Source: Escherichia coli (GTDB taxonomy: Bacteria > Pseudomonadota > Gammaproteobacteria > Enterobacterales > Enterobacteriaceae). Taken from it: DNA of 64,000 bases. The first letter of the stretch is position 1. Every line of letters begins with the position of its first letter. This document shows, in pieces, positions 1 through 3,000 of this stretch. The position numbers are program-made. The stretch lies in NCBI RefSeq assembly GCF_003018255.1, contig NZ_CP027441.1. One strand, given 5' to 3'.

Positions 1-3000
1 TATCGCTGGCGTACTGATGCAGGTCCGGCTCAACAAAGGTGGCGGGTTCCAGCTTCAGCGTGGACAGGTCGCACAACTGCCGGTACTCCGCCGGAAGATG
101 CAGTTCCAGAAAATCTCTGGCGACGTCGGGATTCGCCAGGAACGACCGGAACGCGGCATCATGCGGCGTGGGCGTTGTGGTGTTTTTCTTCTTACTCACG
201 GTTCCTCCTGGTGAGATGTCTGAACGTATCCTGCCGCCTGCACAGGCAGACGGCAAGGGTTAATCAGTGGCAGACCCGCTCAATTTCAAGCGCGCGGAGC
301 AGGTGGCCCCATTCGCTGACTTTCATGGCGGGGATACGTACCCGCTTCTGCTCACTGCAGCGTCTGGCGATATGACCGCCCATCGCCAGGACGTCCGGGT
401 TAATCTCATCCGGTGCCAGTTCCTGGCGTCTGAAGCGGGTATGGCGGTGCAGGGGTTTGTTCTCCCGCAGGCACTCTTCACGCAGACGCTTTACATACTC
501 GGCGGTTGCGAAGATAATTGATGGTCTCATGGCATAATCTCCATAGTTAGTGAATGAGATGCCGGACTTCCGTACGGGGAAGCGCCGGCGGAGAAAGGCA
601 GGGTTTATCGCCCTGCCTTTTTTCATTTCGGACAGCGACGCAGTGCCAGCGCGAGCGCTTTCATCTTCCAGCCTTCCGGCGTGCGGTACATCACATTCCA
701 GTAGCCGTCGATGAACACATAATGGAAGCGCACCTCTTCAGTGCTTTCAGTGGCAATAGCCTCCATGAAAGAACGGTACTCACGCGCCTCACTGTCCATC
801 CGGAAACCACTGTCACGTCCGTAATAAGCCGTCACACCGTCCACCGGGTTCTGAAGCGTATGCCCGGCGGGTTTGTCGCAACGGGGACCAAGGCAACGGA
901 TATCACCGTGTTCAACCAGGGCTTCGGCCTGCTGACCGGTGGCATAGTGGGTATGCAGGATGCGACCGTTCCAGGCCGGCTCACCGTGCAGGTGGCAGTA
1001 AACGGTACGGAACACCCCGTCGCGGCAAAAAACAGAAATCGTGCTGCTGACTGTCATGAAAACGTCTCCTTCTGCTGAATCAGGTCGCCGGACCGACCGG
1101 TTGCTCCCCGGAGGGGCGAAAGCCCCTTCTGCCGTCCACTTCTTCGGGGTTTCTCCCCGCAGTGGACCTTTCCGATGGGGCAGCGACAGCCACGGCACGG
1201 GGCAGTTGTCCGGGGGCAGACGCAAAAGTTTTTGACGCTTGCGGCAAAAAGTTTTGTGGCTGGTACATCTCCCCCCTGGACGGCTGACACGTGTTGTGGC
1301 CGCTTCAGCCCCCGGAAAGTCCACAGCGGGAAACAGGCCGCAGGGGTGGCGGCGGAAGGGCAGACAACTGCGCCATCAGGCGCAGTTTCCTTACACACCG
1401 TCAGGTGTGCAGGGAGCGCAGGTCACGGCGCGACAGAGGCGGCGCGACCGGAACGGTCGCTGCAAGCCTGGTTTTTCAGACATCGGACCGTAGCGGCAGC
1501 CCGAAACCGCGCCAGCGGGTTCGGCGGAGACTGGCGGGTGCGCCAGCAGCTGCCTGTCGGAGTCGGGCCTGACGACCGGATGCCGCCAGGCAGCCGGGAG
1601 CCGAAGGGTGTCCCCGCCCCCGGGAGTCAGAACAACAGAAACGACAAAACAGAAAAATGCCTCACACTATGACAGGCAGGAAGGGCAGCGCCGCAGGCGC
1701 GGCCCTCCTGTATTTCAGGCAGGCGTAAGCCTGCCAGGGTTTTCCGGCGGCCCGGCAGGCCATACCCCCGCCGGAGCGGGGGAGTAAATCACCGACGGAA
1801 CACATGACCGTCAATAAAGGTGAAGGAGTCCAGGAATAAATCCCGCGCATACGCCTCATAGTCAAAATAGAGCGCCACCGTCTCCGGCACGTCAGCCAGC
1901 AGGCCGGTATCACTGACGAACTCAACCGCAAAAGCCTCCTCACTGTCAGCCTCGCCCCACCAGGCATCGCGGAAGCTGTCAAAATCCGTCTCACCGGTAT
2001 CATCCACCCAGAGACGATAAGCCTCTTCGCAGCCTTCATCCCGTGCCTGGCGGAAGCCTTCAACCCAGGCCCAGTTGATATGGCATTCAGAGGCCATATT
2101 CCCCGGGAATCCCTCATAATCCTGAAACATCAGTTCAGGATCGGCTTCATCCTGGTGAAGAGCACGGCAGGCGGCGAAAAAGTCGCGCTCATCATCAAAC
2201 GTGGTCAGGTCAAACCAGCGTCCGGCGATGCTTCCACAGTTGTATTTGTGCCAGGTTCCAACGTATACAGCAGGTGCAACAACAGACATTCCCGAATCCT
2301 CCATAGTCACATGTTCTGCGACACCGGGCGGTGCCGTGCCTCCATCTTTGCCGGGCCTGCTGGGATGCAAGGGCGCAAGGGAAGCCGCAGCCCGACGCGC
2401 ACGGCTGACGGGAGTTGGAGGGTGAGACCGCGAAATCTGAGCGGGTGAACGACCGGAAAATCACGGCAGACGGGAAGGAGGGACCGGGTGACCGCAGCGG
2501 TTCATCTTACCTTGCATCCCGCCCGCAGAAGCCCGGCTACGATGGAGGCACGGCACAGCCCGCACACGACGCAGAGGCCACATAACTGAAAACCCACAAG
2601 GCCATGCCCCGCATGGCCGGGTAAAAGCGGAGCCGCCGGCGACTTCCTTATTCCGATGAGAGCAGAGGACACGCCGCATGACCTCCAGACCACCCCTGAT
2701 ATGAAACGATCATGACCGGCATGTCCCTGCCCCTCAAGCATACCTCCACTGGTTCACCGAAGAACATCCGTGATGCTCACAAGTTTTCTGTCGCGCAGCC
2801 AGTCCTGCGCTTCACGCACCACACAACTGTCCGGTTTCACCGCTTTCAGCGATGATGCCAGTCGCTTGATCAACATCACCAGTTCCCGTGTCTGTATGTC
2901 CGGCATTGTCTCCGGCGGAGCAGAGGGACTCTCATTTCCGACGCCCATCCCATGCGCTTCCAGTGTGGCACGGACAAACCAGGCAACATCGACCAGTTGC

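Follow-up and report, generated by a model that had tools for sequence, protein, structure and literature searches.

Probable class 2 single-stranded-DNA promoters upstream of ardA and klcA in the leading region of an Escherichia coli plasmid

What do two nearly identical repeats of about 350 base pairs (bp), each with long inverted arms and each standing directly before an anti-restriction gene, do for the plasmid that carries them? The repeats in question, here called family B, lie in a stretch of 64,000 nucleotides (nt) of Escherichia coli contig NZ_CP027441.1 (assembly GCF_003018255.1), hereafter the window, in which copy 1 (B1) precedes ardA and copy 2 (B2) precedes a klcA/ardB-like gene. 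We put the probability at about 0.88 that each copy is a class 2 single-stranded-DNA (ssDNA) promoter, the element named ssp2 in plasmid F. Family B and its ssDNA-promoter role are already known from the orthologous sites of plasmids pESBL and F; what seems to be new is the existence of two stem alleles, the finding that the copies evolve in concert, the wide spread of the family, and a short third member elsewhere in the window.

The repeat pair and its published orthologues

The window is 100% identical to the E. coli plasmid NZ_CP027372.1, which is typed as IncI-gamma/K1 + IncFIB, MOBP and MPF_I. The repeat copies and the genes that they precede (lengths in amino acids, aa) are as follows.

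2307..2649, + (transferred/template strand): family B copy 1, probable class 2 ssDNA promoter module before ardA, from repeat identity and orthologue alignment
9053..9394, +: family B copy 2, probable class 2 ssDNA promoter module before klcA/ardB, from repeat identity and orthologue alignment
1789..2289, -: ardA, 166 aa; Pfam ArdA PF07275, 8e-30; annotated ArdA in the identical record NZ_CP027372.1
8609..9034, -: klcA/ardB-like anti-restriction gene, 141 aa; Pfam Antirestrict PF03230, 2e-26; annotated 'antirestriction protein'

Pairwise alignment and BLAST place the limits of homology at 2307-2649 and 9053-9394; in the pairwise alignment, homology begins about 18 nt before each ATG (2289 and 9034) and stops near 2649 and 9394. 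A repeat search gave 95% ungapped identity over 300 nt (2307-2606 vs. 9053-9352), and BLAST of copy 1 against copy 2 gave 94.4-95.0% identity across 343-354 nt (E ~1e-156). The pair that the initial annotation had described, two copies of about 350 bp at about 93% identity, is therefore real, at 94-95% over about 343 bp and with limits within about 12 nt of those given there. The long inverted arms that it had reported are present as well, each 32 nt long, 91% complementary and separated by 174 nt (2325-2356/2531-2562 in copy 1 and 9071-9102/9277-9308 in copy 2), and the quoted sequences ggtgccgtgcctccatc / gatggaggcacggcac lie inside the arms of both copies. Its placement of each copy immediately upstream of an anti-restriction gene agrees with the Pfam matches of ardA and klcA/ardB, both on the minus strand; NCBIfam gave no match for the ArdA or the KlcA protein. 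A further claim, that family B is unrelated to a second repeat, family A, was confirmed by blastn (word size 7, E<=1e-3), which detected no similarity between the two; it is family A, not B, that aligns with Frpo1/Frpo2 of F.

Two recent studies describe elements at the orthologous positions. In PMC12672017 (Nucleic Acids Research, NAR, December 2025), six leading-region operons of pESBL are reported by RNA-seq to be strongly induced in early transconjugants, their start sites are given by 5' rapid amplification of cDNA ends (5' RACE), and the upstream hairpins are put into three classes: class 1, comprising ssi1-3, which are Frpo homologues; class 2, comprising two mutually similar hairpins 5' of klcA and ardA; and class 3, a hairpin that precedes the methylase M.EcoGIX. 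The paper states that F has conserved counterparts of classes 2 and 3. A January 2026 preprint (bioRxiv 10.64898/2026.01.09.698686) reports that ssp2 of F drives the gene that follows it, yfgB, which is homologous to R64 ArdB, that the ssp2 hairpin stalls complementary-strand synthesis at the stem end, and that UvrD resolves the stall; deletion of ssp2 in F led to faster downstream conversion, halved the production of PsiB and reduced transfer into non-isogenic or restriction-proficient recipients.

Copy 1 aligns end to end with positions 13856-14319 of pESBL (reference sequence NC_018659.1; our L005) and 33658-34107 of ColIb-P9 (L003), both ardA loci, and copy 2 aligns end to end with positions 6958-7373 of pESBL (L005) and 6343-6758 of F (L002), the latter being ssp2, 5' of yfgB. 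Because of these end-to-end alignments with the pESBL and F sites, at 88-90% identity, we identify family B with the published class 2/ssp2 element, and the proposal of the initial annotation that the repeats are single-strand promoters for zygotic induction matches what PMC12672017 reports for the orthologous pESBL sites. The class 2 elements of pESBL-EA11 stand at the two corresponding loci of an IncI-gamma/K1 leading region with collinear gene order, share the hairpin architecture, with TTGCAT and TA(A/C)GAT on the 3' arm, and are 88-89% identical to the window copies overall and 94-96% identical in the apical domain, with identical leaders, whereas their arms are only 72-77% identical to those of the window and represent another stem allele. 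F ssp2 is the orthologue of copy 2 (89% identity) in the same place before a klcA-like gene, but F has the other stem allele and a single copy, because F is without ardA; the roadblock and its dependence on UvrD have been shown for F only. The class 1 elements (Frpo1/Frpo2 of F and ssi1-3 of ColIb-P9) resemble family B in that a transferred-strand hairpin rebuilds a sigma-70 promoter and in their similar placement in the leading region. Unlike family B, with which they share no sequence similarity, they have a CACAAAATTTTTTGCC / GGCAAAAAATTTTGCG core, and the arms of family B were not found in any of five reference Frpo/ssi sequences. Family A belongs to class 1: its copies, at 1111-1608 and 7269-7768, are homologous to F Frpo1/Frpo2 and ColIb ssi. 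IncI plasmids have a third such copy, ssi1, which would be expected past the low-coordinate end of the window.

Relatives of family B had also been listed by Samuel and Burstein 2024 (PMC11541004, supplementary file 4), among Frpo-like candidates from an insect-gut metagenome that were not set apart as a class. Their Frpo' 4 is homologous to family B over its full length, and in its basal stem a C-G pair has been replaced by A-T in a compensatory change. Frpo* 1 and Frpo* 3, both short-form relatives, come from one metagenomic contig that was found again in the metagenome scan described below (L038). Full-length matches are present in at least 5,000 of the 72,556 plasmids of PLSDB, mostly from Escherichia, Klebsiella, Salmonella and Shigella.

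Fold, promoter-like elements and covariation

The window covers the leading region, whose genes follow the same order as in ColIb-P9 and pESBL-EA11 and, partly, as in F. In the first two of these plasmids, the leading genes are transcribed towards nikA/oriT, which lies a few kb past ardA, and because of this synteny the origin of transfer (oriT) of the window plasmid is predicted to lie just below coordinate 1, outside the window. The + strand is therefore the template of all these leading genes, and the template strand of leading genes is, according to Bates et al. (1999, as cited), the transferred strand. We identified the following features, all but the predicted start on this strand.

2315..2575, +: long imperfect hairpin of copy 1 (DNA fold of 2295-2650: -95.5 kcal/mol, z -5.9 vs. 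shuffles)
9071..9308, +: long hairpin of copy 2 (DNA fold of 9040-9395: -86.8 kcal/mol, z -3.7)
2325..2372, +: 5' arm of copy 1, predicted template strand of the rebuilt promoter (sequence, stem layout)
2510..2562, +: 3' arm of copy 1, predicted non-template strand of the rebuilt promoter (sequence, stem layout)
2512..2517, +: -35-like TTGCAT in the non-template arm of copy 1 (sequence)
2538..2543, +: -10-like TACGAT in the non-template arm of copy 1 (sequence, fold, stem layout)
9258..9263, +: -35-like TTGCAA of copy 2 (sequence)
9284..9289, +: -10-like TACGAT of copy 2 (sequence)
2335..2339, -: predicted transcription start at about 2337, taken as about 7 nt downstream of the -10 element

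In these DNA folds, the transferred (+) strand of each copy makes a hairpin of about 250 nt, and for copy 1 the complementary strand folds less stably (-83.9 kcal/mol, z -2.9). The 3' arm of copy 1 reads, 5' to 3', CCTTGCATCCC-GCC-CGCAG-AA-GCCCGGC-TACGAT-GGAGGCACGGCAC, and the 5' arm contains the complements of the -10 (2344-2349) and -35 (2365-2370) elements, with 15 nt between them. The first three positions of TACGAT (T·T / A-T / C·T) form a bubble that is mismatched in part; the counterpart of this element is TAAGAT in the other allele and TAnnnT in the relatives. In the window allele, TTGCAT/TTGCAA and TACGAT are both on the 3' arm, with a spacing of 20 nt on the non-template arm vs. 15 nt on the template arm. 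The last base of the -35 element differs between the two copies and the difference is compensated on the opposite arm (A2365-T2517 in copy 1, T9111-A9263 in copy 2). Transcription is predicted to start at about 2337 and 9083; the leaders would then be about 47 nt long, the one of copy 1 reaching to the ardA start codon at 2289. A consensus scan, which is a weak proxy for inactivity of the duplex, found no linear sigma-70 promoter in 2200-2800 or 8950-9550.

These features suggest the following mechanism. During conjugation, the + strand would enter the recipient single-stranded, low coordinates first, and each segment of about 250 nt would fold back before the complementary strand is made. The stem would rebuild a duplex sigma-70 promoter, in which the 3' arm, carrying TTGCAT/TTGCAA and the partly unpaired TACGAT, serves as the non-template strand and the 5' arm as the template. 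Host RNA polymerase would start near 2337 or 9083 and proceed in the direction of falling coordinates, transcribing ardA from the first site and klcA with the genes that follow it from the second, such that anti-restriction proteins could be made within minutes of entry. Once the second strand is synthesised, the hairpin would be gone, with some 190 bp between the arms, and the promoter would be switched off. If the homology with F ssp2 is a guide, the hairpin probably also holds up synthesis of the second strand until the helicase UvrD opens it, and such a stall would prolong the single-stranded, transcribing state of the downstream genes. With these hairpins, anti-restriction proteins would be expressed while the plasmid is still entering as a single strand, before the restriction enzymes of the host see duplex DNA, and this early expression therefore bears on the establishment of resistance plasmids in new hosts, a significance that has already been argued for the orthologous pESBL and F sites.

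Relatives of the hairpin occur in metagenomes as well. A metagenome scan with the pattern GCCGTG-N135-165-GCCCGGCTANNNTNNNGNCACGGC, which fixes parts of the arms and TAnnnT only, found 96 loci (L017-L112) with a shorter interior, from uncultured plasmids, among which the hairpin design is thus widespread; several of the metagenomic contigs bear two or more copies of these short-form relatives. Nearly all metagenomic relatives have a 3' arm of the form CCCTTGnnn-N12-GCCCGGC..., in which TTG, although not part of the pattern, stands exactly 15 nt before TAnnnT. At about 100 loci, a start codon with a Shine-Dalgarno sequence is located 32-44 nt beyond the 5' arm. The products encoded downstream of the metagenomic relatives comprise 67 orphan DNA methylases, 50-82% identical to the methylase of the window, about 20 KlcA-like proteins, a dozen small proteins, and DUF1281-like proteins. 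A scan of genome contigs with a 20-nt apical motif yielded 8 loci, which are near-identical pieces of enterobacterial plasmids, several of them mis-binned in metagenome-assembled genomes; a scan of viral contigs yielded 3 matches, all without the 5' arm and probably due to chance.

For the analysis of covariation, we aligned 33 non-redundant members, including B1, one pESBL copy and Frpo' 4. RNAalifold on this alignment recovers the hairpin. Standard pairs make up 95.8% of the pair cells, compared to 30-40% paired in slid controls; 11 pairs have changed on both sides (61 cells), and the observed pairing and covariation values were reached in 0 of 500 shuffles. Among the pairs that covary are those at positions 4 and 5 of the -35 hexamer as well as a basal T-A/C-G pair. 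On the + strand, G·T cells outnumber A·C cells by 60 to 8, and this excess indicates that it is in the transferred strand, rather than in the mRNA strand, that the structure is maintained. The apical domain contains two motifs, AAGCCGCA and CGGGTGA, that are unpaired and invariant among the 33 relatives. We considered whether the apical domain is unusually conserved and rejected this for enterobacterial plasmids, in which its identity is 94-99%, compared to 90-99% for neighbouring genes. The template-strand hairpin, the -35- and -10-like elements, the covariation, the G·T bias and the negative linear sigma-70 scan are all in line with the single-strand-promoter idea of the initial annotation.

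Alternative explanations and points against a promoter

The explanation that comes closest to competing with an ssDNA promoter, and that we nevertheless consider unlikely, is that the hairpins are mainly single-strand initiation (ssi) signals, at which synthesis of the complementary DNA strand is primed in the recipient, gene expression being secondary. The class 1 Frpo/ssi elements serve both purposes (Masai and Arai 1997, as cited), and a promoter alone leaves the two invariant apical motifs of the 33 relatives unexplained. In F, however, early conversion was rare just downstream of ssp2, with 4% at yfgB vs. 24% and 48% downstream of class 1 promoters, and ssp2 delayed synthesis rather than starting it (10.64898/2026.01.09.698686). 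The fixed position of the start codon and Shine-Dalgarno sequence, 32-44 nt from the arm, moreover points to an mRNA leader.

The strand bias of the stem bears on a second alternative, in which the structure works as RNA in the duplex plasmid, as a long 5' untranslated region, an attenuator or a terminator in read-through transcripts from upstream genes. The sense strand does fold (-83.9 kcal/mol), and the upstream part of the repeat holds a small hairpin that resembles a terminator:

2588..2618, -: small GC-rich hairpin GGCCATGC-GGG-GCATGGCC, followed by TTGTGGGTTTTC; weakly terminator-like (fold)

This small hairpin was found in only 5 of 32 relatives, and we rejected it as a conserved terminator. 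The 60 to 8 ratio of G·T to A·C cells favours the antisense (transferred) strand, Rfam covariance models at the gathering score gave no match across the whole window, and the pESBL start sites reported in PMC12672017 fall within or after the hairpin, which would place it outside the mRNA. Together, these observations make an RNA-level role very improbable.

We give still less credence to the suggestion that the repeats are remnants of an element resembling a miniature inverted-repeat transposable element (MITE), or recombination scars, without a function of their own. They are dispersed, their long inverted arms look terminal, and the copies within a plasmid are homogenised and hence recombining; however, IncI and IncF plasmids and about 100 uncultured ones all have them in one place and orientation, with the transferred strand as template and a start codon 32-44 nt further on, the stem is preserved through compensatory changes, and deletion of the F orthologue lowers transfer into non-isogenic hosts (10.64898/2026.01.09.698686). 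That the repeats encode a small protein is the least credible of all, since indels of 1, 4 and 5 nt set alleles and copies apart and the open reading frames (ORFs) that mechanically cross the repeats (e.g., 2461..2679 and 9000..9656) differ between the two copies, and although a 'hypothetical protein' is annotated there in a few database records, most records annotate nothing across the repeats.

Several points weigh against the conclusion that each copy is an ssDNA promoter. Copy 2 has the less clear-cut fold, with a minimum-free-energy structure unlike the centroid, and in its 251-nt core the two strands are nearly alike (-73.4 vs. -70.8 kcal/mol). The paired spacer of 15 bp is shorter than the usual 17 bp, and our assignment of the -35 and -10 elements may differ from the published boxed elements. 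The blocks GCCGTG/CACGGC and GCCCGGC were fixed by the search pattern, so that their invariance is uninformative. For the window plasmid itself, the evidence consists of sequence and fold, while induction, start sites and the roadblock come from orthologues; the experimentally tested allele is that of pESBL and F only, from which the window allele differs and from which it could differ in promoter activity and roadblock strength. The exact start site and the activity of the window allele are accordingly given here as predictions.

Stem alleles and the remaining elements of the leading region

Alignment of the arms revealed two stem alleles. One allele, that of pESBL, ColIb-P9 and F, combines a 15-nt spacer on the non-template arm with a GATAA bulge (4-5 nt) on the template arm, a stem design that the shorter metagenomic relatives share. 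In the window allele, which is also found in K. pneumoniae ATCC 13883, among others, the non-template arm has five extra nt (20 vs. 15 nt). The latter type is common, with roughly 1,300 records at >=95% identity, among the matches listed. An origin of the window allele by inversion of the pESBL/F stem was rejected, as the -10 region is not swapped and the middles of the spacers do not match. The arms and apical domain of the two copies in one plasmid are 96-100% identical (window, pESBL and ColIb-P9), whereas at the same locus the arms of the window are only 72-77% identical to those of pESBL or ColIb-P9. Conversely, the Shine-Dalgarno leaders are locus-specific, with 58-61% identity between copies and 97-100% between plasmids. 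Judging from these identities, the copies of family B evolve in concert within each plasmid, and this implies gene conversion between copies 6.7 kb apart.

A profile hidden Markov model (HMM) that we built from the metagenomic short forms alone and ran on the window matched 2328-2560 (E=3e-11) and 9074-9306 (E=1.5e-10), that is, the two copies of family B, and with a better score a third site, 12961-13123 (E=4e-17); there were no further matches in the window at E<0.01.

12959..13123, +: third, short-form member of the superfamily (HMM E=4e-17), directly upstream of the DUF1281 gene (12958..12002)

This hairpin (-57 kcal/mol, z -5.2) has TTGCAT-N15-TAACGT on its 3' arm and may be either the published class 3 element or an unreported seventh promoter. 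The initial annotation had arranged the hairpins as an alternating B-A-B-A-C series; the elements of this series are present, but they do not strictly alternate, given an extra hairpin at 11676-11900, and the hairpin at 12960 is a short relative of B rather than an unrelated element C.

A broader interpretation joins these results, and we offer it tentatively, considering it possible but doubtful. Beyond acting as promoters, the family B repeats would represent a single branch within a broad superfamily of hairpins that form on the transferred strand and have a second programmed function, acting as two or three timers in IncI plasmids that are tuned by the stem allele. The 96 metagenomic loci, which mostly head orphan methylase, KlcA-like and DUF1281 genes, would belong to the same superfamily by virtue of a shared design, namely the TTG-N15-TAnnnT arm, the 4-5-nt spacer bulge and the invariant unpaired AAGCCGCA and CGGGTGA. 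If this were true, the second function might be the timing of second-strand synthesis by a roadblock, or the binding of a host factor; the timers 12959-13123, B2 and B1 would be kept matched by gene conversion; and the opposite-arm bulge of the window allele would tune promoter strength or stall duration in a way unlike that of the pESBL/F allele. To the published picture, the window adds a common stem allele, the spread of the design in uncultured plasmids and the third relative before the DUF1281 gene.

The extra hairpin at 11676-11900 (+) is large, with 30-nt arms and a fold of -92 kcal/mol (z -5.5); it is located directly before the orphan DNA methylase (11616..10933, NCBIfam PRK13699) and shares sequence with the annotated gene of a 101-aa 'hypothetical protein'. 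The published class 3 ssDNA promoter probably corresponds to this hairpin, whose leader GGCACCCCTGTGGTGCC is common to class-2-like elements heading metagenomic methylases.

With the repeat copies named in place, the gene order of the leading region begins with the DUF1281 gene, the orphan methylase and further genes, B2, klcA and a DUF1380 gene, and continues with copy A2 of family A, ssb, a parB-like gene, psiB, psiA, a 209-aa ORF, B1, ardA, copy A1 of family A and a small ORF. The gene upstream of copy 2 ends just outside the repeat.

9425..9443, -: hairpin with T run resembling an intrinsic terminator, which ends the upstream 256-aa gene, just outside copy 2

At higher coordinates, an impB/umuC-like gene for a Y-family polymerase seems to be divided between two overlapping ORFs (14004-14996 and 14858-15274); the matching plasmid record lists no coding sequence across 14004-15274, and the gene is likely a pseudogene. 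Finally, the 8-bp unit TTGTTATC is repeated in tandem at 15296-15353 (about 7 copies) and 16407-16489 (about 10 copies). A ParA-family gene (15478-16104) and a small ORF lie between these two arrays, which probably serve as partition (centromere-like) sites.

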